A stretch of 19,246 bases of DNA from Candidatus Iainarchaeum sp. (GCA_003559395.1 PWLL01000094.1:1-19246); one strand, 5' to 3'; counted from the stretch's first letter, positions 3,418-19,013 are shown. Numbers and translations: made by a program. The notes: generated by a model not told the origin, from the letters alone.

Positions 3418-3442
3418 AAAAAATCTTTTTAAAAAATAGAAA

Positions 3443-3515
3443 TAGTCCGAAGGAGATTCGAACTCCTGTCACAAGGTTCAAAGCCTTGTATGCTTGGCCT
3501 CTACACTATCGGACT
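3443..3515 (-). tRNA. tRNA-Gln (anticodon UUG), 73 nt, no intron, CCA not encoded
   Basis: The reverse complement folds by hand into a cloverleaf: acceptor AGTCCGA/TCGGACT, discriminator A, D stem GTGT/GCAT, anticodon stem CAAGG/CCTTG, loop CTTTGAA, T stem AGGAG/CTCCT, T loop TTCGAAT. The A1:U72 pair is typical of archaeal tRNA-Gln. Confidence 0.9.
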
Positions 3516-3540
3516 ATAAAATTAGGTATACTAATAAACA

Positions 3541-3548: not shown

Positions 3549-3655
3549 TTTAATTAATTTTAAAAAGAGATGTGATTAGGAAAAAACCTATAAAAAAACA
3601 GAAGGCTTTTTATATGTTTTTGTGGGTATAATATTTTATATAAGAACAATCTATT

Positions 3656-3731
3656 GGGAGTGTAGCTTAGCCTGGCTTAGAGCACTCGACTGATAATCGA
3701 GAGGCCGCAGGTTCGAATCCTGCCACTCCCA
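3656..3731 (+). tRNA. tRNA-Ile (anticodon GAU), 76 nt
   Basis: Hand-folded cloverleaf: acceptor GGGAGTG/CACTCCC, discriminator A, D stem GCTT/GAGC, anticodon stem CTCGA/TCGAG, loop CTGATAA, variable AGGCC, T stem GCAGG/CCTGC, T loop TTCGAAT. Confidence 0.9.
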
Positions 3732-3736
3732 TACAA

Positions 3737-4204
3737 CTATTTTGCTTTTTTATTAGTAAATGCTATATTAGGGGTCAATTGGTCTTCATATAAACAAGTA
3801 CCAACAATTTTGTTATCATATATACAAACTATGTAGCCTTTAGACAATATGTTTCTATTAACAACCTGTTCTAAAGAAAATGGTTTTCCTTTAAGAAAAT
3901 CAACAACTAAATCTCTGTTAAGAACAACAAAATTATATTTTATCTCCTTTGCACAAAAAGCACTAAAGCCAAGAGAACTAGGTACAAAATGTTTTTTATC
4001 AGCAAAGATTTCTATACCTGCATTAAAAACAGCTTTATTAAGTATTTTTTTAATCACTTCTTCTTTATCTTTAGAAATAACAAAAACAGACTTATGTTTA
4101 AACAAAAACAAAAACTGATCTAGATATTCTTTAGAAAACCCATATCTAGAAACTAGGTGGTTTATTATTTTTTTATTTTCTAAAAACTTAAACATAAACA
4201 TCAT
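3737..4204 (-). CDS. PUA-like RNA-binding domain protein resembling the detached C-terminal domain of RsmF/YebU-type m5C methyltransferases
   Basis: The 155-aa ORF has a start ATG that overlaps the stop of the upstream methyltransferase ORF (ATGA, 4-nt overlap at 4201-4204). The C-terminal 'KGYIVCIYDNKIVGTCLYEDQLTPNI' resembles the 'G-W-x-L-V-x-x-x-G-x-P-L-G-x-G-K...L-K-N' strand pair of the RsmF C-terminal PUA-like domains. Combined length is 303+155 aa, close to the approximately 480-aa single-chain RsmF. Confidence 0.6.
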   Translation of the reverse strand: MMFMFKFLENKKIINHLVSRYGFSKEYLDQFLFLFKHKSVFVISKDKEEVIKKILNKAVFNAGIEIFADKKHFVPSSLGFSAFCAKEIKYNFVVLNRDLVVDFLKGKPFSLEQVVNRNILSKGYIVCIYDNKIVGTCLYEDQLTPNIAFTNKKAK

Positions 4205-5112
4205 TTTTTTCTAAGCTTACAAACAAAAAAACATTCCAGATTAGTTTTGTGTGGATATATTCTTATTGCTTTTTTAAGAGAAGCATCATATTTTTTATTG
4301 TTATAGCTAGTAAGTCCAGAAGAAACATTTAGCCTAACATCTATATCTTCAACAACAGCAGAATCATTTTTAAGAAGAAAATCAATAACCTCTTCATTTT
4401 CTTCAGGAGACAAAGTACATGTAGAATAAACAAGCACTCCATTTGGCTTTAAAAGATCAAATCCTTTTTTAATTAACTTTTTTTGAAGAATGGCTTTTTT
4501 TAACACAATCTTTTGAGACCATGTATGAATACCTTTGTTTTTTTTAAGAAAAAATCCTTCAGAACTACAAGGTGCATCCAATAAAACTTTATCAAACAAG
4601 AAATCAAAGTTTAATTTTAAAGCATCATTACATGTAACCACTGTGTTATAGACTCCATTTTTTTTAAGAGTATAAATCAGTTTTTTAGATCTATTTGCAT
4701 CAATATCATTAGCAACAATAAGACCTTGATTTTTCATAATCTCAGAAATAAAAGAAGTTTTATTTCCAGGAGCCGCAGACATATCTAGAATAATATCTTC
4801 TTTCTTAGGATCAAGCACATGCACAGGAAGCATAGAAGAAAGTTCTTGCATTTGAAAAAAACCAAGCAATTGTTCAGCACAATTGCCTAGACCAACAACA
4901 TTTGAGGTTATTTTGTAGCAATTATCTAAAAATATTACTTTTTCATAATTCATATCTTTAAAACATTCTATTTCTTTTATATCTTTTATTTTTAAAGTGT
5001 TTATTCTTATTGCCTTATAAGGCGTTTTACAATGATTAATAAACAAATCAACATCCTTTCCTAAAAAAGAACTATATTTTTCAAAAAGTTTTTGAGGAAG
5101 CTCAATAGTCAT
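4201..5112 (-). CDS. RNA (cytosine-C5)-methyltransferase, NOL1/NOP2/Sun (RsmB/RsmF/Trm4) family, catalytic domain only
   Basis: The SAM-binding motif is 'ILDMSAAPGNKTSF'. The two catalytic-cysteine motifs are 'LLDAPCSSEG' (motif IV, PC) and 'LVYSTCTLSPEENEEVI' (motif VI, TC). Confidence 0.9.
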   Translation of the reverse strand: MTIELPQKLFEKYSSFLGKDVDLFINHCKTPYKAIRINTLKIKDIKEIECFKDMNYEKVIFLDNCYKITSNVVGLGNCAEQLLGFFQMQELSSMLPVHVLDPKKEDIILDMSAAPGNKTSFISEIMKNQGLIVANDIDANRSKKLIYTLKKNGVYNTVVTCNDALKLNFDFLFDKVLLDAPCSSEGFFLKKNKGIHTWSQKIVLKKAILQKKLIKKGFDLLKPNGVLVYSTCTLSPEENEEVIDFLLKNDSAVVEDIDVRLNVSSGLTSYNNKKYDASLKKAIRIYPHKTNLECFFVCKLRKK

Positions 5113-5505: not shown

Positions 5506-5510
5506 GGGGT
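5506..5510 (+). promoter_or_regulatory. Possible Shine-Dalgarno-like element for the histone-fold gene
   Basis: 'GGGGT' lies 8 nt upstream of the ATG at 5519 and is partly complementary to the archaeal 16S 3' end (SD consensus GGAGGTGA). Confidence 0.35.
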
Positions 5511-5518
5511 TGTACGAT

Positions 5519-5968
5519 ATGAATAATATAGAAGAAAAAGAAAACTTTCAAGAAAAAGAAGATATAGAAAAAGAAATAAACGATAGTGTTGAAGAAATGA
5601 CTCAACAAGAAAAAGAAGAATTACAAGAAGAAGAAGATGAAGATTTAGAAGACGAAAAACTTCCTTTTCCAAACGCAACTGTTGTTAGACTTATGAGACA
5701 AAGTTTAGATAAAAACAAACAAATAAAAGGCGTTGTAAAAAAAGAAATGAACCTTTGGTTAGGAAGACTTATAGAAACTGTTTGTAAAAAAATGAATGCT
5801 TTTGACTATAGTTATGTTGACTATGGAATGTTTAAACAAGCAATTGAAACTTTTGAAAATATACAAACAATAGAAATAGAAAAAATGAGACTTATAAAAA
5901 ATATGGAAAAAATAAAAGCAGACTGTGATGCTTTGATAGACGACGTAGAAAGAAAATTTCATGAGTGA
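5519..5968 (+). CDS. Histone-fold protein with an acidic N-terminal tail and a C-terminal coiled-coil extension
   Basis: The core 'LPFPNATVVRLMRQSLDKNKQIKGVVKKEMNLWLGRLIETVCKKMNAFDYSYVDYGMFKQAIETF' matches the helix-loop-long helix-loop-helix pattern of HMf/NF-Y-type histone folds ('LPIAPIGRIIK...'). About 45 N-terminal residues are Glu/Asp-rich. The ORF track starts at a TTG at 5510; I prefer the ATG at 5519 because of the upstream GGGGT. Confidence 0.6.
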   Translation: MNNIEEKENFQEKEDIEKEINDSVEEMTQQEKEELQEEEDEDLEDEKLPFPNATVVRLMRQSLDKNKQIKGVVKKEMNLWLGRLIETVCKKMNAFDYSYVDYGMFKQAIETFENIQTIEIEKMRLIKNMEKIKADCDALIDDVERKFHE

Positions 5969-6198: not shown

Positions 6199-7833
6199 AT
6201 GAATAATTCTTCAAATCAAAAATCTGAGTTTTTACCAGAAGGAACAAAAAGAGATAGAGGTAAAGATGCACAAAGATTAAATATACTGGTCGCAAGAGCA
6301 GTAGGAAATGCAGTAAAATCAACTTTAGGTCCTAGAGGAATGGATAAGATGCTTGTTGATGAATATGGAAATGTTACAGTAAGTAACGACGGAGCAGCAA
6401 TCCTAAAAGAAATGGCTATAGAACATCCTGTTGGAAAGATGTTAGTAGACCTTGCAAAAACACAAGACGAAGAAGTAGGAGACGGAACAACAAGTGCCGT
6501 TGTTTTTGCAGGAGGACTAGTTTCTAAAGCAGAAACACTTTTAGACGAAAATATACATCCTTCCATTATTATTAAAGGATATAAGATGGCTGCAGAAAAA
6601 GCTGCAGAACTATTTAAAGAAATTTCAGAAGAAATAACAATTAATGATAAAGAACTTTTACTAGATATTGCAAAAACCTCAATGACAGGAAAAGCATCAG
6701 AATATAGTGGAGGATTAGCACATATTGTTGTAGAAGCTATAAACAAAATATCTAAAATTTCTCATGAAAATCTTGATAAAGAACAAATAAAGATAGAACA
6801 AAAAGTCGGAGCAAACATTTCTGAATCAAAACTTGTAGATGGAATCGTGTTAGATAAAGAAATCGTACACTCAGAAATGCCAAGAGAAATAAATGATGCA
6901 AAAATATTATTGTTAAGTACGGCCTTAGAAATAAAAGAACCAGAAACAGAAGCAAAGATACAAATAACCTCTCCTGAGCAATTACAAGCCTTTTTAGATC
7001 AAGAAGAAAACACACTAAAACAAATGGTTGAACAAATAGAAGCAACAGGAGCAAATGTACTTATTTGTCAAAAAGGAATAGACGATCTTGCTCAACACTA
7101 TCTTGCACAAAAAGGAATCTGTGCGATTAGAAGAGTAAAACAATCAGATCTTGAAATGATTGCAAAAGCAACAAAAGCAAAAATTGTATCAAGACTAAAA
7201 GACGTAACAGAAAAAGAACTTGGATTTACAAAAAAGATATATGATAAAAAAATAGCAGGAGACCATATGTTCTTTATAGAAGGATGCCCAAACCCTAGAA
7301 CAGTAACAATTATTCTAAGAGGCACATCTGAACAAATCCTTGCAGAAACAGACAGGACTTTAACAGACGCAATAGGTGCAGTAATTTCTTCGTTAAAGAT
7401 AGGGCGCTATGTTGCAGCTGGAGGAGCATCAGAAATAGAAGTTTCTTTAAAACTAAAAGACTTTGCAAAAACAGTAGGCGGAAGAGAACAACTTGCTATT
7501 GAATGTTTTGCAGAAGTTTTAGATGTTATTCCAAAAACACTTTCAGAAAGTGCAGGCCTTGACGCAATAGATACAATCGTGTCCTTAAGAAATAAACATC
7601 AAGATCCAAAAAATAAATTTGTTGGAGTAGATGTGATCAATGGAACTTTAACAGACATGAAAGAAAAAAGAGTAATAGAACCATTAAACGTTAAAACACA
7701 AGCCATTACTTCAGCAGCAGAAGTTGCAGAAATGATCTTAAGAATAGACGATATCATCGCAGGATCAAAAGGGGGCCAAGGAGCTGGCCCACAAGGACAA
7801 CCAAATATGCCTAACATGCCAGGAATGATGTAG
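6199..7833 (+). CDS. ths: Thermosome subunit (group II chaperonin, Cpn60/TCP-1 family)
   Basis: Diagnostic motifs are 'LGPRGMDKMLVD', 'VSNDGAAILKEM', 'VGDGTTSAVVFAG' and 'AAGGASEIE'. Length is 544 aa, with a Gly/Met/Pro-rich C-terminal tail 'GGQGAGPQGQPNMPNMPGMM'. Confidence 0.97.
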   Translation: MNNSSNQKSEFLPEGTKRDRGKDAQRLNILVARAVGNAVKSTLGPRGMDKMLVDEYGNVTVSNDGAAILKEMAIEHPVGKMLVDLAKTQDEEVGDGTTSAVVFAGGLVSKAETLLDENIHPSIIIKGYKMAAEKAAELFKEISEEITINDKELLLDIAKTSMTGKASEYSGGLAHIVVEAINKISKISHENLDKEQIKIEQKVGANISESKLVDGIVLDKEIVHSEMPREINDAKILLLSTALEIKEPETEAKIQITSPEQLQAFLDQEENTLKQMVEQIEATGANVLICQKGIDDLAQHYLAQKGICAIRRVKQSDLEMIAKATKAKIVSRLKDVTEKELGFTKKIYDKKIAGDHMFFIEGCPNPRTVTIILRGTSEQILAETDRTLTDAIGAVISSLKIGRYVAAGGASEIEVSLKLKDFAKTVGGREQLAIECFAEVLDVIPKTLSESAGLDAIDTIVSLRNKHQDPKNKFVGVDVINGTLTDMKEKRVIEPLNVKTQAITSAAEVAEMILRIDDIIAGSKGGQGAGPQGQPNMPNMPGMM

Positions 7834-7834
7834 A

Positions 7835-7840
7835 TTTTTT
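7835..7840 (+). terminator. Oligo-T terminator candidate after the thermosome gene
   Basis: A T6 run sits immediately after the TAG stop. Archaeal termination typically uses oligo-T tracts. Confidence 0.4.
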
Positions 7841-7878
7841 AAAAAAATTATGGAAAGTAAGTCTTATATATAACCTAG

Positions 7879-7890
7879 GATATATATATT
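7879..7890 (+). promoter_or_regulatory. Putative TATA box of the OB-fold gene
   Basis: 'GATATATATATT' lies about 45 nt upstream of the ATG at 7931, next to a CCTAGG-centred palindrome and upstream of a hairpin (see findings). Confidence 0.35.
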
Positions 7891-7930
7891 ATTTATGGAC
7901 CTTCCATAAAAAACAAATAATGTGTTATAT

Positions 7931-8245
7931 ATGAAAATAGAAGAAATTAAGAGTTATCAAAAAAAGATAAATGTTTTAGCAAAAGTAATAGACAAAACAG
8001 AGATAAGAGAAGTAAACTCAAGACTAGACAACACAAAACACAATGTTTGTGAAGCAATACTCGCAGACGAAACAGGAAAAGTTTATCTTACCTTATGGGA
8101 TGACGCGATAGAGAAGATAGAAGTTGGAAAAACATATTTGTTCCAAAATTTGTTTTCTTCAGAATTTAAGAAAGAACTAAGACTTAATATAGGTCGTTTT
8201 GGAACCTTTGAAGAAACAGATCAAGAAGTTCAAGTAAAAGAATAA
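7931..8245 (+). CDS. Single OB-fold nucleic-acid-binding protein (archaeal RPA/SSB-like)
   Basis: The pattern 'INVLAKVIDKTEIREVNSRLDNTKHNVCEAILADETGKVYLTLWDDAIEKIEVGKTYLFQNLFSSEFKKELRLNIG' matches the canonical archaeal OB-fold pattern (V-x-x-V-x...-x-DETG-x-I-x-L-T-L-W-D-x-x-A...G-x-x-V-x-I-x-N-A...). The ORF track starts at a GTG at 7922; the ATG at 7931 is more likely. Confidence 0.8.
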   Translation: MKIEEIKSYQKKINVLAKVIDKTEIREVNSRLDNTKHNVCEAILADETGKVYLTLWDDAIEKIEVGKTYLFQNLFSSEFKKELRLNIGRFGTFEETDQEVQVKE

Positions 8246-8256
8246 TTGTTTCCTTC

Positions 8257-8263
8257 TTTTTTT
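8257..8263 (+). terminator. Oligo-T terminator candidate after the OB-fold gene
   Basis: A T7 run lies 12 nt after the TAA stop. Confidence 0.4.
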
Positions 8264-8289
8264 AAATCTTTTTATTTACTTATTCTTTA

Positions 8290-8365
8290 GGGAGTGTGGC
8301 TTAGCCTGGTTTAGAGCATTGGTCTTATACACCAAGGGTCGCAGGTTCAAATCCTGCCATTCCCA
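8290..8365 (+). tRNA. tRNA-Ile (anticodon UAU), 76 nt
   Basis: Hand-folded cloverleaf: acceptor GGGAGTG/CATTCCC (one G:U pair), discriminator A, D stem GCTT/GAGC, anticodon stem TTGGT/ACCAA, loop CTTATAC (U33, then U34-A35-U36), variable GGGTC, T stem GCAGG/CCTGC. Outside the anticodon arm and variable loop it differs from tRNA-Ile(GAU) at 3656..3731 at only 4 positions. Confidence 0.85.
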
Positions 8366-8415
8366 TCTTTTTATCTTTTTTTAAGATGTTTTATATTTAT
8401 ATTTAGTGGTTTTTT

Positions 8416-13042: not shown

Positions 13043-16000
13043 ATGATAAATATGAAAAAAATAAATAATTTTTTAAAAATAAATTTTATAATAGTTTTAA
13101 TACTTATTTTTTTTGCAAATAATGTTTTTGCAATAGATACAGAACTTAACGAAAACCATTTCTTTTTTTGTAACGAACAAGAACTTTGTGATAACCTCTT
13201 TGAACCAAATGAAATCATATATTTAGAAACTACTTATCCTGAATTTAGATATGATATTGAAATATATAAAAATGATGTTATTTATGAAACATATAATAAT
13301 ATACAACTGCCAATGACTATAGACCTTTCAAGTGGACTATATGTATTTAATATTAATTATGAAGACAATACTTTTATAAAAAACCTAGTGATAGGAACAT
13401 CAATAGAAGACAATGATATCTATGATGAGGACAGAACAACCGTTGATCCTTTAAAAGAAGAAAAAAGAAATAATTTGTTTTATATTGTCTTGTTTGTAAT
13501 TGTGATATTGTTAATTGTTATTTTACTTAAAACAAAGAAAAAAAGCAAACCAAAGCCAGTTAAAAAAACAAAAAACCGTCGTAAAAATAGAAGATATATG
13601 AAATGTTTGTTTGTTTTTATTTTTCTTTTTATGTTGAGTTGTAGTGTTTTTGCATTTGATTTGTTAGAAGATTTAGAAATAAACAGATCAGATTTAGAAG
13701 AACTTTATCCATATCCCGAAGAAGTTTCTTTAACAATTATTCCTAATAATAAACATTATGAAATATATGTTCCGATTGTTAGTTATGACAATTTGTTAGG
13801 GGATATATTAAATGATAGAATTAAAATTTTAAATGAAAATAAAGAAGAAATTACTTCTGAAAAAATAAAAATAGACGCTTCACATGTGTTGTTAGCAGAT
13901 AAAGATGAACTTAAAATTTGGTCTGCTAGACATCCTTTGAGATCTGAACCCATGATGCGCAATTTTCCTTCGACAACTCCTTTTATTGTTGGTTCTTATG
14001 TTCGTTTAAATAATTATTATGATCAATATCCAATAAATGAAAACAAAAATTCATTGATTAGAAGAACAAGAAAAAATTTAGAATTGTTTTTTGGAAGAGA
14101 TCTAATTACTAGCTTAATTAGAGAAGACTTGTTAGTGCCTATGCCATATCTATTAACAATTATTGTTGAAAATCAACAATATAATACACAGAATTTTGAA
14201 GAAAAAGAAGAAGTATATTATTTAGACTTTTCAAACGCAACAGTTTTTCCTGCAGGAACACTAGAAGATATAAAAATAAATTTAAAATATGAAGATAAAA
14301 CAATTGATTATATAAAAACAGATGATGAATATAATGTCGTTCAATCAATGATTAAAGAATATGGTTGGAAAAATCAAAAAACAACAATTGCAGATCTTTC
14401 TAGTTTTAATTATAGAGACTTATTTAAATATAAAAACCATTTTAATAATAATCAAATAATCTTTACTAAATTTGATCTGGTAAATGATAAAACATTTGAT
14501 TTGTTTTTTAAGGATATAGAAATAAAAGATATTTTGGTTGCTCCGGATTTTCTTAAGGGACCAAAATATCATAAAGAACAAGGTTTACAAGAAATATTTG
14601 TATTAACAAAACCAATTACAGAAGACGAAACACAAGAACGTTATTTGTTAGTAGACGTATTTCATAATTATGAAGAAAAAGTAACCATTTCTGAAAGTCT
14701 AACAAATAAAAATAATACAGATTCTGGTCGCTGGTATAACCTTATAGACAATCATATTAACTTAAATGACCTCGATGAATTTAGAGATTATTCTTTTCCC
14801 AATTTAAGTGTTGCATTTAATTTAGAAGAGAACAGAATAAGTGTTTATTTTGAGCCTTTTAAAGGGCAGAATCAGATAACTCCCACGTTTATTTCTTTGC
14901 CTTTAAAGGTGGAAAATAAAGACGGAAGAAAAGTTAATGGCCGTTTTTTGTTTAGAATTAATGATCAAGAAGAACTAGATGTGTATTTTTATATAGAACG
15001 TTTAGAAGTTGTAAAAAGAATTAGTCAAAATGAATTTCATTTATTAAATATGAATTTGGATTTAGAAAACTCAAACTATTATTTATCAATTTTAAACAAT
15101 ACTGAAGAAAGAATTATAGAAAACAATTTAACCTTACCAACAAACGAATCATATCTAGAAACAATAAATAACTTTAATTTTGTATATAGTAACTACGAAG
15201 ATGAAAAAGATAAAAAACTAATAGACTTTACTGTTGCAAAACTACTTACAGAAGAAGAAAATACAGAAACAATAAATCTTTCTTTATTTAAACCGTATAT
15301 GGTTATAGGAGAAGACAACTATACAGAAAGATTAGAACAATTAATTGAAGAAAAATATAATCTATTAAAAGAAATTGAATATATAAAAAAACTAGGACTA
15401 ACTGATGTTGATTTTATAACAGAAGATTTTGATATTGATAAAAAAAGACTTGAACTAATAAGAAAAGGAAGACTAGGTCAAATTTGTGACCCAAGCGAAA
15501 AAATTTCAGGAACAAACGAATACTTGTTTAATATAAGACCAGAAAATGAAATAGAAACATCAGTCTATGCATGTGCAGGAAATGCAAATTTTAATAATAC
15601 TTGGATTGATTCTTATAAATATTGTTATAAAGAAGGTAACTTGTGGAAATGGTCTAGCTTTGTAAAATGGAACGACGCTTCATTAACACATCCAGTAAGA
15701 AAAGAATGTGCACCAATTGATAAAAGAAGAGCAGAAATTGCAAAAACAGCAACAACAGACGACCCCTGTAATCCAGAAAAAATGATGTTTGATTATGCAA
15801 CAAGACAAGAATTGTCTTTGTTTAATATAAAACACACAGACAAAGACTCATATGTATATGTTTGTACAGGAGATGGAAGAGCAAGAGTATGTGATGTTAA
15901 AGAACAAAAATGGTTGCCAATATTTGACCCAAAAAACACACGTGATCCAGAACATCCTGTTAGAGGATGTATTATAGAACCAGTAGAAGAGCCAGAAGAG

Positions 16001-17461
16001 CCAGTAAAAGAAATAGAATGTGTGTCTGGTGGAGAAGGAACACTACCAGACCCTATCATTGTTTGTACACCAGAAGATTTAGATAATGTGAGAAATGATT
16101 TAAAGAAATTTTATAGACAAGGACAAGATATAGACTTGAGAGATTATGACTTTAAACCTATTGGAGAAAGTAAAATGATTTCTGATTCAGAACGTGATGT
16201 TGATGTGCCAGTCGTTAACTCTTTTGAAGGTCTTTATGATGGAGGAAACTACACAATCTCTAATCTAGTAATTGAAGTTGAAGATCAAAGTAATGTTGGT
16301 TTGTTTGGTCTATCAAAAGGAATTATAAGAAACGTTAACATTGATAATTTTAGAATTGAAAGTAAGAAAACAGGAGACGCACATGTATCTTCTACAGGAA
16401 TCTTGCTAGGAGAAAATTTAGAAAGAGGCAATATTTATAACACAACTATAAAAAACAGCACTGTTAGAGGATATTCTTCCGTAGGCGCTATAGGTCGTAA
16501 TAAAGGAACAATATTAAATTCAAAAATAATTACAGAAGACGGAACAAATACAGTTGTTTTTGGAAACCAAAATGTAGGTGGTTTAGTTGGATATAATGAA
16601 AAAACGGGAAACATAAAGGATTGTTCAAGTGAAAATATTTGGGTTAGAATTAATACAAATAATCCTGTAAATAGTTTTTATTTTGGAGGGCTTGTAGGAA
16701 CAAATGAATATGGTAAAATTACCTCCAGTAAAGTAGAAAACTTAAGAATTAGAAGTGAAGAAGCAAACATCGTTGGTGGATTTGTTGGAAGAAATTATGG
16801 AGAATATAATGACCACATATCAGAAAGTAATGTGAAAAATACATTTGTTGTAGGTGAAAAGCATGTTGGTGGTTTTGTAGGTGTGAGTTCTGGTGAGGCA
16901 AAAGAATATGTTATAGGACAAACAGCAGATATTAGTCAAAGTTTTGTAGAAAATGTTGAAGTTAAAGGCGAAGAAAATGTTGGTGGATTTGTTGGGTTAA
17001 ATAGAGATTCGTTTATACATTCTTCCTATGGAATTAATATAGATGTAAACGGACATCAAAATATAGGCGGATTTGTAGGCTCAAATTCAGGAACACAATC
17101 AGAAGATCCATCAGTAATTGTTGATAGTTTTGTTAAAGAAGTAAATGTAGTTGGAGAAGGAAATAATGTTGGGGGATTTGCAGGACTAAATCTATATATA
17201 ATTTATAATAGTTATGTTACAGGGGATGTGAAAGGAAATGATTATGTTGGTTGTTTTATAGGAAATAATTTTTATGAAGGTGAATTTAAATATTATGATG
17301 AAAACTTAATTTCAAAGATTAATGTTACTTATTTTAGTAATGGAAATAATCGTGGATTTATGGGTAGTACCTGGCCTTCAAATTTTGCAACATATCATCA
17401 AGAAAATTTGTTTAATACGGTGATCGAGAATAATGGTTGTAGACTTAAATTAAATAAATAA
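13043..17461 (+). CDS. Giant surface protein (1472 aa). Domain order: signal peptide, small ectodomain, TM-basic loop-TM hairpin, approximately 630-aa orphan region, two 4-Cys modules, C-terminal GLUG-repeat beta-helix.
   Basis: The signal-like N-terminus is 'KKINNFLKINFIIVLILIFFANNVFA'. TM 'LFYIVLFVIVILLIVILL' is followed by the basic loop 'KTKKKSKPKPVKKTKNRRKNRRYMK' and a second hydrophobic segment 'CLFVFIFLFMLSCSVFA'. From nt ~16028 the GLUG-domain entry consensus appears: 'GGEGTLPDPIIVCTPEDLDNV...DIDL...KPIG...FEGLYDGGNYTISNLVI...NVGLFG'. About 11 '(N)VGGFVG-x-N' repeats follow. Confidence 0.9.
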   Translation: MINMKKINNFLKINFIIVLILIFFANNVFAIDTELNENHFFFCNEQELCDNLFEPNEIIYLETTYPEFRYDIEIYKNDVIYETYNNIQLPMTIDLSSGLYVFNINYEDNTFIKNLVIGTSIEDNDIYDEDRTTVDPLKEEKRNNLFYIVLFVIVILLIVILLKTKKKSKPKPVKKTKNRRKNRRYMKCLFVFIFLFMLSCSVFAFDLLEDLEINRSDLEELYPYPEEVSLTIIPNNKHYEIYVPIVSYDNLLGDILNDRIKILNENKEEITSEKIKIDASHVLLADKDELKIWSARHPLRSEPMMRNFPSTTPFIVGSYVRLNNYYDQYPINENKNSLIRRTRKNLELFFGRDLITSLIREDLLVPMPYLLTIIVENQQYNTQNFEEKEEVYYLDFSNATVFPAGTLEDIKINLKYEDKTIDYIKTDDEYNVVQSMIKEYGWKNQKTTIADLSSFNYRDLFKYKNHFNNNQIIFTKFDLVNDKTFDLFFKDIEIKDILVAPDFLKGPKYHKEQGLQEIFVLTKPITEDETQERYLLVDVFHNYEEKVTISESLTNKNNTDSGRWYNLIDNHINLNDLDEFRDYSFPNLSVAFNLEENRISVYFEPFKGQNQITPTFISLPLKVENKDGRKVNGRFLFRINDQEELDVYFYIERLEVVKRISQNEFHLLNMNLDLENSNYYLSILNNTEERIIENNLTLPTNESYLETINNFNFVYSNYEDEKDKKLIDFTVAKLLTEEENTETINLSLFKPYMVIGEDNYTERLEQLIEEKYNLLKEIEYIKKLGLTDVDFITEDFDIDKKRLELIRKGRLGQICDPSEKISGTNEYLFNIRPENEIETSVYACAGNANFNNTWIDSYKYCYKEGNLWKWSSFVKWNDASLTHPVRKECAPIDKRRAEIAKTATTDDPCNPEKMMFDYATRQELSLFNIKHTDKDSYVYVCTGDGRARVCDVKEQKWLPIFDPKNTRDPEHPVRGCIIEPVEEPEEPVKEIECVSGGEGTLPDPIIVCTPEDLDNVRNDLKKFYRQGQDIDLRDYDFKPIGESKMISDSERDVDVPVVNSFEGLYDGGNYTISNLVIEVEDQSNVGLFGLSKGIIRNVNIDNFRIESKKTGDAHVSSTGILLGENLERGNIYNTTIKNSTVRGYSSVGAIGRNKGTILNSKIITEDGTNTVVFGNQNVGGLVGYNEKTGNIKDCSSENIWVRINTNNPVNSFYFGGLVGTNEYGKITSSKVENLRIRSEEANIVGGFVGRNYGEYNDHISESNVKNTFVVGEKHVGGFVGVSSGEAKEYVIGQTADISQSFVENVEVKGEENVGGFVGLNRDSFIHSSYGINIDVNGHQNIGGFVGSNSGTQSEDPSVIVDSFVKEVNVVGEGNNVGGFAGLNLYIIYNSYVTGDVKGNDYVGCFIGNNFYEGEFKYYDENLISKINVTYFSNGNNRGFMGSTWPSNFATYHQENLFNTVIENNGCRLKLNK
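15485..15970 (+). repeat. Two tandem ~75-70-aa four-cysteine modules (protein-level repeat) inside the giant surface protein
   Basis: Module 1 is C815...C889: 'CDPSEK..LFNIRPENEIETSVYACAG...YCYKEGNLWKW...THPVRKEC'. Module 2 is C909...C976: 'CNPEKM..LFNIKHTDKDSYVYVCTG..RVCDVKEQKWL...EHPVRGC'. The Cys, LFNI, VY-x-C-x-G, KW and HPVR-x-(x)-C positions align. Confidence 0.75.
16292..17269 (+). repeat. About 11 GLUG-type beta-helix repeats with a ~28-38-aa period, also visible as recurring 'gttggtggatttgt(t/a)gg' in the DNA
   Basis: The repeats begin NVGLFGLSKG, STGILLGEN, SVGAIGRNKG, NVGGLVGYNEKTG, YFGGLVGTNEYG, IVGGFVGRNYG, HVGGFVGVSSG, NVGGFVGLNRD, NIGGFVGSNSG, NVGGFAGLNL and YVGCFIGNNF. Each is followed by an alternating hydrophobic 'I-x-N/S-S/C-x-V-x-N' strand. 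Confidence 0.85.
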
Positions 17462-17486
17462 AATAATATTTAAAATGTGAAAGAAT

Positions 17487-19013
17487 ATGATAAAAAATAG
17501 AAAAAATATAAAGGTTTTTTTAATAATTGTGTTTTTTTGTTTAATACTAACAAATGTATTTGCAGAAAATACAGAATATATTAAACAATTAGAAGAAAGG
17601 ATTCAAGAAATAGATACAGAAATATATAGAATATTACAAATATCCGATAGTTTAGTGATTGAACTAATATCATATGATAATGAAAAACAAATAATTAATT
17701 TAAATATAAATGATGTTTCCTTTGAATATGATTTTTATAACAACATTTTAACAAGTGATAAATTTACTGAAGATGAAATTAAAAGAATAATAAAAATAGA
17801 TGAAGACTCTTTTGAAGCACTAGAATTAGAAGCAAAATTGTTTTATGAAGAAGAAAAAGAAGAAAAAACCCTAAAAGATACTGTAAATTTTATCGATATT
17901 ATAAATCCAGAAAAATCTTATATTATTTCTGAACAATATAAAGATGCTGAAAAATACGATTCTTTTTTTGAGTATTTTAATTATTTTTTATCATCAAATG
18001 ATGATAGAGAAGAAAAAATACAAACCTATTTTAAACAATTTTATAATAATTTAGAAAAACAAAAAAAATTAGAAGAATTTAGGAGAATGACCGAAGGACA
18101 TTTGACAAATATTTTTGACGGACGCTATGAAGATGATTTTGTTGTTTGTGAATATGAAATTGAAGATGTGATAAGAACAGATATTAGATTTGATTCTGAA
18201 AATAAAAACCAGAGAGTTGATTTTGAGCCCGGTTATACAAATAGATATCTTTATTTTAATAAAAAATTATATCCTACAAATAACCCAACAGACGTCAATG
18301 GTTATATTATTGAAATACACGACAATGATTATTTTATCTATTCCTTTTTTTCAAAGGAAAATAATCAATTAAGATATAATGTTTATTTAAAGAAAATATT
18401 AAATAAAGATAACTCTAATATAGAACCAAATAAAACTTACAAATATTCAGATGTTTCATTTGCACCTCAAAATGAAGAAAAAACAAATCAGATTTCTTTT
18501 TTTGTAGATATTAAATATTTAGAAAATGAGTTAAGAAAAGAAGATAGTAAAGATATTGTTGATATACTAAATTCTAGCAAAAATCAAGAGGTAATTTTAG
18601 TAGCAGAGATTACTTTGCCAAATTTATCTTTTGATTGTAATTACAATTTGTTTTATTTTGACCAAGAAAAAGAAATAACAATAGATGATGAACAAAAAAC
18701 AATTGATGATACAGAACATTATTCAGAAATTTCTTTAAAAAATAATTTTTTATTTAGTAACAATGTTTTACAAACAGAGGTTGATTTTGATAATAGATAC
18801 CAAAAATTAGAATTCTCTTTTTTTAATATGCATATTCAAGAAGAAGATAATCAAAAATACGGTTTGAGTTTTTGGAACACATTTAAGAAAAACATTACGT
18901 TTGATTTAACATATTCAGATTTATTTACTGCGACAAGTAAAATAGATAAAAAAATATTAGAAGAAAAAACAGATTCTCCTGTAGTAGGTTCCAAAGTTTC
19001 TGTAGATCCTTAA
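17487..19013 (+). CDS. Secreted orphan protein (508 aa), rich in Glu/Lys/Asn/Phe/Tyr
   Basis: The signal-peptide-like N-terminus is 'MIKNRKNIKVFLIIVFFCLILTNVFA|ENTEY'. There is no further hydrophobic segment and I recognise no domain. It starts 25 nt after the giant surface-protein gene on the same strand. Confidence 0.75.
   Translation: MIKNRKNIKVFLIIVFFCLILTNVFAENTEYIKQLEERIQEIDTEIYRILQISDSLVIELISYDNEKQIINLNINDVSFEYDFYNNILTSDKFTEDEIKRIIKIDEDSFEALELEAKLFYEEEKEEKTLKDTVNFIDIINPEKSYIISEQYKDAEKYDSFFEYFNYFLSSNDDREEKIQTYFKQFYNNLEKQKKLEEFRRMTEGHLTNIFDGRYEDDFVVCEYEIEDVIRTDIRFDSENKNQRVDFEPGYTNRYLYFNKKLYPTNNPTDVNGYIIEIHDNDYFIYSFFSKENNQLRYNVYLKKILNKDNSNIEPNKTYKYSDVSFAPQNEEKTNQISFFVDIKYLENELRKEDSKDIVDILNSSKNQEVILVAEITLPNLSFDCNYNLFYFDQEKEITIDDEQKTIDDTEHYSEISLKNNFLFSNNVLQTEVDFDNRYQKLEFSFFNMHIQEEDNQKYGLSFWNTFKKNITFDLTYSDLFTATSKIDKKILEEKTDSPVVGSKVSVDP

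Follow-up and report, generated by a model that had tools for sequence, protein, structure and literature searches.

The window analysed here, a complete contig of 19,246 nt from an NCBI genome with a GC content of about 27%, contains three tRNA genes, tRNA-Gln(UUG), tRNA-Ile(GAU) and tRNA-Ile(UAU), which were called by ARAGORN and found at the same three places by Rfam. The last of these, at positions 8290-8365, lies directly behind a small protein gene that itself follows a thermosome gene, and an ABC transporter gene is found further downstream. In the following, L121 denotes a close relative of the source organism (GCA_015657915.1, contig NPIE01002285.1, 193 kb) whose thermosome is 88% identical, and L073 a more distant one. 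The features of the locus and its partner genes are:

3443..3515 (ARAGORN 3442-3516), minus strand: tRNA-Gln(UUG), Rfam 64.1 bits, in an arrangement common to L121 and L073
3656..3731 (ARAGORN 3655-3732), plus strand: tRNA-Ile(GAU), the companion Ile tRNA for codons AUU and AUC, Rfam 72.9 bits
6199..7833, plus strand: thermosome (group II chaperonin), Pfam Cpn60_TCP1 E = 3.9e-169, PDB Mm-cpn E = 3.4e-178
7922..8245, plus strand: small SSB/RPA-like OB-fold protein, Pfam Ssb-like_OB E = 3.5e-9, ending 45 nt 5' of tRNA-Ile(UAU)
8261..8267, plus strand: TTTAAAT, an A/T-rich, TATA-box-like putative archaeal promoter, found by eye, 23-29 nt 5' of the mature end
8290..8365, plus strand: tRNA-Ile(UAU), 76 nt, from ARAGORN, Rfam RF00005, the L121 orthologue and covariation
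8366..8382, plus strand: T-rich tract, a putative oligo-T terminator, found by eye (T5 at 8368-8372, T7 at 8376-8382), abutting the tRNA 3' end

ARAGORN calls a tRNA-Ile with anticodon tat on the plus strand at 8290-8365, and Rfam model RF00005 matches the same interval end to end (68.7 bits against a gathering score of 29, E = 2.1e-13), with model positions 1-71 of 71 covered and zero non-canonical pairs. Both programs thus bear out the anticodon UAU and the loop C-U-U-A-U-A-C that the initial annotation had read from the DNA. The loop is 7 nt long (C8324 to C8330), U33 and A37 flank the anticodon at 8326-8328, and the discriminator is A73. Neither ARAGORN nor Rfam indicates an intron, the model match being contiguous over 76 nt and the anticodon loop free of insertions. 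A CCA end is absent from the gene. A search pattern of 20 bases that includes this loop, the T-loop and the 3' end matches the window once and 0 of 200 shuffles.

Archaeal TATA boxes lie at about -26, and the TTTAAAT element may represent the promoter because its position fits this spacing, although it is a weak match in DNA of 27% GC. Oligo-T serves as a termination signal for archaeal RNA polymerase, and the T-rich tract could accordingly be the terminator of the tRNA gene. The tRNA would then be transcribed alone from an A/T-rich promoter, with transcription stopping at the oligo-T tract; splicing would be unneeded, and CCA would be added post-transcriptionally.

Compared position by position, tRNA-Ile(UAU) and tRNA-Ile(GAU) show 14 differences over 76 positions, ten of them within the anticodon arm and variable loop, where 6 of the 10 anticodon stem positions and 2 positions of the variable loop are changed. 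The other four are position 9, one D-loop base, T-loop position 57 and acceptor position 68, the last giving a G5-U68 pair in place of the G5-C68 pair of tRNA-Ile(GAU); bar this one acceptor base, both molecules have identical acceptor, D and T stems. The count of only four differences in the tRNA body, put forward in the initial annotation, is therefore exact. Together with A73, which both tRNAs carry, it identifies the body as Ile-type. In line with this, the claim that the gene is an Ile isoacceptor and not a mis-called tRNA holds: it is genuine, under selection and dedicated to AUA, and of the same kind as the genes of Nanoarchaeum equitans and Korarchaeum cryptofilum. IleRS would probably charge it via the acceptor, D and T framework and the A35-U36-A37 sequence that it has in common with tRNA-Ile(GAU).

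The codon that this tRNA is expected to read is indeed very abundant. Among 567 isoleucine codons in 13 window ORFs (5,746 codons), ATA is the most frequent with 291, followed by ATT with 225 and ATC with 51. ATA thus makes up 51% of isoleucine codons and 5.1% of all codons, and ATG occurs 97 times in the same 13 ORFs. The bias toward A/U-ending codons across the window ORFs is extreme in general (AAA 521 vs AAG 58; AGA for 141 of 164 Arg codons; TTA the commonest codon for Leu), so several U34 tRNAs beyond tRNA-Ile(UAU) must bear most of the decoding load.

The meaning of AUA was assessed on the thermosome. At its 24 ATA codons, 119 homologues carry I in 75%, V in 18% and M in 0.7% of cases; this profile equals that of the ATC sites, while ATG sites are occupied by M at 86%. 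Because these 119 homologues are mostly predicted DPANN proteins, the comparison was repeated against the solved M. maripaludis chaperonin (3KFB). Here, the ATA sites align with I in 12, V in 11, D in 1 and M in 0 cases, and the ATG sites with M at 13 of 16. AUA keeps its standard meaning, isoleucine, in this organism.

Since the window encodes a thermosome, its source is archaeal. Among named organisms, the thermosomes closest to it are those of Candidatus Iainarchaeum sp. (76, 66 and 64% identity), and Candidatus Diapherotrites archaeon comes next at about 60%, with the labels of the metagenome-assembled genomes (MAGs) taken as deposited; on this ground, we place the organism among Iainarchaeia/Diapherotrites-type DPANN archaea. 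The product of 7922..8245 also matches NCBIfam models for single-stranded DNA-binding proteins, with scores under their cutoffs.

Several other genes of the window deserve mention. At 4201-5112 (minus strand), a NOL1/NOP2/Sun-family RNA m5C methyltransferase is encoded (TIGR00446, 258 bits), which resembles the archaeal tRNA (cytosine49-C5)-methyltransferase and falls below the cutoff of that model. It is syntenic in L121 and L073 and lies between both Ile tRNA genes, which implies no link with U34. A small ORF just 5' of the thermosome (5510-5968, plus strand) is 81% identical over 101 aa to its counterpart in L073, is present in two tandem copies in L053 and L020, and has a marginal match to Pfam DUF3456 as its single hit. 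The product of the plus-strand gene at 13043-17461 is 1,472 aa long, carries a Glug motif (Pfam PF07581, E = 1.6e-20) and is probably a large surface protein. Its exact sequence is missing from the protein collection, which does contain those other window proteins for which a look-up was made.

The tRNA-Ile(UAU) gene is identical at 76 of 76 positions between the window and L121, whereas the flanking DNA has diverged and the 60 nt upstream are unrelated. Both genomes have the same gene order, namely pyrimidine-dimer glycosylase, tRNA-Gln, tRNA-Ile(GAU), NOL1/NOP2/Sun methyltransferase, thermosome, SSB-like protein and tRNA-Ile(UAU), and L073 carries its Gln-UUG, Ile-GAU and Ile-UAU tRNAs in the order of the window. 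The UAU orthologues of the window and L121 are 87% identical to that of L073, while UAU and GAU paralogues reach 76-82%; tRNA-Ile(GAU) orthologues are 88-95% identical, those of L121 and L073 being 93-95% identical to the gene of the window. As UAU orthologues are closer to one another than to their GAU paralogues, the two isoacceptors had already separated when these genomes diverged.

Beyond these genomes, tblastn places the thermosome, the SSB-like gene or both beside tRNA-Ile(UAU) in 12 loci (L073, L044, L019, L053, L058, L020, L081, L075, L050, L110, L054 and L069), whose thermosomes are 55-76% identical to that of the window, a range that extends to 55-88% once L121 is added. The SSB-like gene is the immediate upstream neighbour of the tRNA in L121, L073, L019, L058, L044, L054 and L069. 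The block of thermosome, SSB-like gene and tRNA spans 6199-8365 in the window, 10001-12155 in L121 and 4732-6952 in L073. No functional reason is apparent for this linkage of a chaperonin, an SSB and tRNA-Ile(UAU).

Covariation was analysed in an alignment of 28 archaeal tRNA-Ile(UAU) genes, that of the window included. Anticodon loop, T-loop and CCCA end were set by the pattern with which the homologues were collected, and their conservation is thus given by construction; the stems were left free, and in these 98.6% of cells are paired, with compensatory double changes in 11 of 21 pairs. At 0.597, the covariation score exceeds that of shuffles (0.191; 0 of 500 reach 0.597), and sliding the partner strands as a control drops pairing to 29-46%. 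In addition, the anticodon arm UUGGU-CUUAUAC-ACCAA recurs in the distant lineages L019, L044 and L058. The full identity with L121, the closeness of orthologues relative to paralogues, the synteny and the stem covariation indicate, at the sequence level, that the gene is functional, old and vertically inherited.

L121 also offers a view of the synthetase. Its contig encodes an IleRS (953 aa, TIGR00392, 751 bits) at 14974-17835, 2.8 kb downstream of tRNA-Ile(UAU), followed within the interval 14974-20950 by a class II aaRS of the Asp/Asn type, tRNA-Asn(GUU) and a CysRS-like gene; the window encodes no IleRS, and where L121 has this block it carries the 1,472-aa Glug protein. The L121 IleRS aligns to solved type-2/eukaryote-like IleRS structures over residues 9-849 only, and its C-terminal ~100 residues have no match among solved structures.

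Most archaea read AUA with tRNA-Ile2(CAU), whose wobble base is an encoded C modified to agmatidine by TiaS. The task is the same as that proposed for the gene described here, to read AUA as isoleucine without reading AUG; the difference is that tRNA-Ile(UAU) encodes U at the wobble position, and it would therefore offer TiaS no substrate. We searched for both components of the usual system. With the A. fulgidus enzyme as query (100% identical to PDB 4RVZ/3AMT), tblastn found no TiaS-like sequence in the 19-kb window or in 120 loci, the best hit (E = 0.18) being in a bacterial locus, nor in 8-kb slices around the 28 archaeal UAU genes, slices that are small and make this weak evidence. The same query yielded 6,639 matches in a protein search, and the best 120 of these 6,639 are all from Archaeoglobi. 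ARAGORN finds no CAU tRNA in the 19-kb window.

The literature was searched in parallel. TiaS, K06932 and COG1571 were not found in the supplements of DPANN comparative-genomics papers, and no open-access text was found that links TiaS with DPANN archaea in general or that describes the UAU tRNA-Ile pattern in Diapherotrites or Iainarchaeia. A search combining agmatinylcytidine with DPANN lineage names returned no open-access paper containing 'agmatinylcytidine' among the matches listed. By analogy with N. equitans and ARMAN, TiaS and tRNA-Ile2(CAU) are probably absent from this genome, and tRNA-Ile(UAU) is most likely the sole AUA decoder of this Iainarchaeia-type DPANN archaeon.

How common such genes are was sampled in one scan of GTDB species genomes with the pattern CTTATA-N14/15-GTTCNAATC-N8-CCCA, which gave at least 120 loci and is to be read as a sample, not a census; the contig of the window is not among the loci listed. 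Among the matches listed, ARAGORN confirmed tRNA-Ile(UAU) in 106 of 120: all 62 from CPR/Patescibacteria, 28 of the 30 from archaea and 16 of the 28 from other bacteria. The archaeal labels among the matches listed are Micrarchaeota, Iainarchaeum/Diapherotrites and 'archaeon', together with one Thermoplasmata and one Marsarchaeota contig. The gene type is thus common in ultrasmall archaea and bacteria and is the marker of no single lineage. Its proposed use as a lineage marker is accordingly weak, since such genes are spread across a number of DPANN groups and abound in CPR bacteria; the lineage signal lies in the conserved neighbourhood of thermosome, SSB-like gene and tRNA.

The CPR hosts include Saccharibacteria, Parcubacteria, Microgenomates and Peribacteria (e.g. 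L002, L009, L010, L016 and L039), and an encoded UAU anticodon seems routine in these bacteria; no open-access paper was found that links lysidine with CPR. The tRNAscan-SE 2.0 survey lists UAU tRNA-Ile in just 17 bacterial genomes (PMC8450103). Going by our sample, DPANN archaea and CPR bacteria seem to encode UAU anticodons routinely, as opposed to the handful of exceptions in complete-genome surveys.

Some labels in the sample call for caution. The contigs labelled Thermoplasmata (L004, 7.4 kb) and Marsarchaeota (L046, 9.9 kb) carry tRNA-Ile(UAU) of the Micrarchaeota type with A38, and the T stem of L046 (GUGAG/CUCAC) is nearly that of the Micrarchaeota locus L030. Both may stem from Micrarchaeota symbionts and have been binned wrongly, in which case they would not be UAU evidence for the lineages on their labels. 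Eight loci labelled 'uncultured Gammaproteobacteria' or 'Pseudomonadales' (L001, L006, L008, L045, L052, L062, L106 and L117) have CPR-like tRNA-Ile(UAU) genes and represent either unusual Gammaproteobacteria or mislabelled bins; in L008, the gene adjoins two tRNA(CAU) genes. In a Methanomicrobiales MAG (L007, PGYL01000006.1), a tRNA-like 3' half at 2289-2330 on the minus strand (…CTTATAACCGGGCGGCCATGTGTTCAAATCGCATCGGACCCA) fits the pattern and receives no ARAGORN tRNA call. It may belong to an intron-containing, split or degenerate methanogen tRNA; a normal Ile2-like tRNA(CAU) lies about 0.9 kb away at 1361-1436.

Encoded UAU anticodons have precedents in Archaea. Complete-genome surveys name N. 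equitans and K. cryptofilum as the only archaea with tRNA-Ile(UAU) (PMC6000648, PMC8450103), and in both the gene, termed 'tRNA-Ile3', occurs without tRNA-Ile2(CAU) (PMC8450103). The initial annotation had cited these two as the classic exceptions, which is correct for both but leaves out the ARMAN/DPANN cases reported in 2011: ARMAN-2, -4 and -5 possess tRNA-Ile(UAU) and lack tRNA-Ile(CAU) and TiaS (Fujishima et al. 2011, PMC3239211). Because of this report, the DPANN UAU pattern counts as already published.

The ARMAN organisms (Micrarchaeota, Parvarchaeota) are, like the organism studied here, DPANN archaea with an encoded UAU for AUA, and related tRNA-Ile(UAU) genes are carried by the Micrarchaeota MAGs L017, L024, L030, L037, L042 and L119. 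The genes differ in structure: that of ARMAN-2 has a 25-nt intron at 37/38, which the window gene lacks, and the Micrarchaeota type combines A38 with a GC-rich anticodon stem, whereas the window gene has C38 and a UUGGU/ACCAA stem. They also differ in lineage, ARMAN as against the Iainarchaeia type, and loss of TiaS and tRNA-Ile2(CAU) is established for ARMAN while it is a deduction for the window organism. N. equitans is likewise a DPANN archaeon with tRNA-Ile(UAU) in place of tRNA-Ile2(CAU). It and K. cryptofilum are thermophiles, and their complete genomes have been verified to lack Ile2(CAU); the window, by comparison, is one 19-kb contig of a mesophile-type MAG of 27% GC in which AUA is the dominant isoleucine codon. 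The tRNA-Ile(UAU) of K. cryptofilum has an intron (PMC6000648), unlike that of the window. A further parallel is bacterial: Mycoplasma mobile has an AT-rich reduced genome and no C34-modifying enzyme, and its UAU anticodon reads AUA (PMC3575796).

We therefore weighed the reading that the gene at 8290-8365 is a functional AUA-decoding tRNA-Ile(UAU), a tRNA-Ile3 used in place of tRNA-Ile2(CAU) and TiaS, against four others. DPANN genomes are strongly reduced, which speaks against a genome that maintains the agmatidine system alongside tRNA-Ile(UAU) and so has two readers of AUA. We consider such redundancy, or a transition through it, quite improbable. The window covers only 19 kb of the genome, and with AUA at 5% of all codons a second decoder could help; a redundant stage is moreover known in bacteria that have both LAU (lysidine) and UAU tRNAs (Taniguchi et al., PMC3575796). 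However, the documented archaeal cases of tRNA-Ile(UAU) are without tRNA-Ile(CAU), and ARMAN is also without TiaS (PMC8450103, PMC3239211). The failure to find a TiaS-like sequence in the window or in the slices around the 28 archaeal UAU genes points the same way, if weakly given the size of the slices. It is far less probable still that the gene is a recent duplicate of tRNA-Ile(GAU) in which G34 became U34, and that it is young, specific to this organism and possibly a non-functional pseudogene. The acceptor, D and T arms are near-identical to those of the GAU gene 4.6 kb away, and the tRNA-Ile(UAU) of K. cryptofilum has been traced to its GAU paralogue (PMC6000648). Yet the changed anticodon stem and variable loop, and the recurrence of the same anticodon arm in three distant lineages, are at odds with a recent origin. 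The duplicate reading is rejected, as it is contradicted by complete identity with L121 despite diverged flanks, by the clustering of UAU orthologues apart from GAU paralogues, by synteny kept over thermosome identities of 55-88% and by strong compensatory covariation.

Two further readings concern the code and the origin of the gene. AUA means Met in some mitochondria, and some organelles have UAU-anticodon tRNAs that read it as Met. Nothing specific to the locus favours a reassignment of AUA (e.g. to Met) or a charging of the tRNA with another amino acid. The alignment of ATA sites with I and V, and of ATG sites with M, both in the homologues and in 3KFB, led us to reject it, and the match of the tRNA body to tRNA-Ile(GAU) also counts against it; its probability is close to nil. 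Viruses of AT-rich hosts often bear tRNAs for A/U-ending codons, and the gene could in principle be cargo of a virus or mobile element, outside the core translation apparatus. But its neighbours are housekeeping genes (thermosome, SSB-like gene, ABC transporter downstream), no integrase or repeats were noted in the window, and the position is kept in many divergent genomes, the orthologous site in L121 among them. Mobile cargo was rejected on this context and has next to no probability. This leaves AUA decoding by tRNA-Ile(UAU) in place of the TiaS system as the preferred reading, to which we assign a probability of roughly 0.8.

In the decoding scheme that we propose, U34 would pair with the final A of AUA, the most frequent of the isoleucine codons, while tRNA-Ile(GAU) at 3656-3731 would read AUU and AUC, and the UAU route would replace the usual archaeal combination of tRNA-Ile2(CAU) and TiaS-made agmatidine. 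To our knowledge, AUA/AUG is the sole place in the genetic code where a purine-ending codon pair is split, and the question of how U34 avoids AUG has been solved experimentally for M. mobile and eukaryotes only. The issue at stake is how a natural archaeal U34 tRNA-Ile shuns AUG while AUA is the dominant isoleucine codon. The eukaryotic cytoplasmic tRNA-Ile(UAU) resembles that of the window in having an encoded UAU dedicated to AUA, and its anticodon is pseudouridine-A-pseudouridine. The pseudouridines at 34 and 36 are intron-dependent in eukaryotes; unlike its eukaryotic counterpart, the window gene is without an intron that could direct them.

M. mobile provides a working model of the alternative, in which t6A37 accompanies an unmodified U34 and both IleRS and ribosome are adapted: its IleRS has an adaptive Arg865, and the ribosome has been proposed to block the misreading of AUG (PMC3575796). 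The need for a U34/U36 modification, which the initial annotation had assumed, is overstated, as M. mobile reads AUA with a fully unmodified U34 (PMC3575796). The M. mobile enzyme is a bacterial-type IleRS with Arg865 in a C-terminal Zn domain, whereas the L121 IleRS is of type 2 (archaeal/eukaryote-like). Because this type-2 enzyme is alignable over the stated residues only, Arg865 has no mapped equivalent in it. In haloarchaea, tRNA-Ile mutated to U34 gains cnm5U, is a poor substrate of IleRS, binds codons in the order AUA > AUG > AUU and slows growth (PMC3895270). Given this poor performance, a U34 tRNA is not automatically workable in archaea, and some adaptation must exist. In the window organism, misreading of AUG might be avoided either by a U34 modification, for example a 5-substituted uridine, or with unmodified U34 by an IleRS/ribosome adaptation like that of M. 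mobile. The contig does not render this question newly testable; the L121 IleRS and the tRNA-Ile(UAU) sequence make a concrete in vitro pair.

A more far-reaching reading, which we regard as unlikely though conceivable, is that TiaS-free decoding by an intron-less tRNA-Ile(UAU) is ancestral and clade-wide in Iainarchaeia-like archaea and perhaps in most DPANN, with the thermosome-SSB-tRNA locus marking this ancestry and a fidelity mechanism new to Archaea. If this were true, these organisms would need an undescribed archaeal fidelity mechanism, because AUA is their most frequent isoleucine codon; it would be a new U34 modification, or an adaptation of IleRS or ribosome unlike that of M. mobile. 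The textbook rule of agmatidine use by archaea would in that case not apply to a large part of archaeal diversity, and CPR bacteria would offer the parallel for lysidine.

Taken together, the tRNA-Ile(UAU) described here is a further example of a known solution and introduces no new mechanism or principle. What it adds is that, in an Iainarchaeia-type DPANN archaeon, a strictly conserved UAU tRNA serves the most frequent isoleucine codon.
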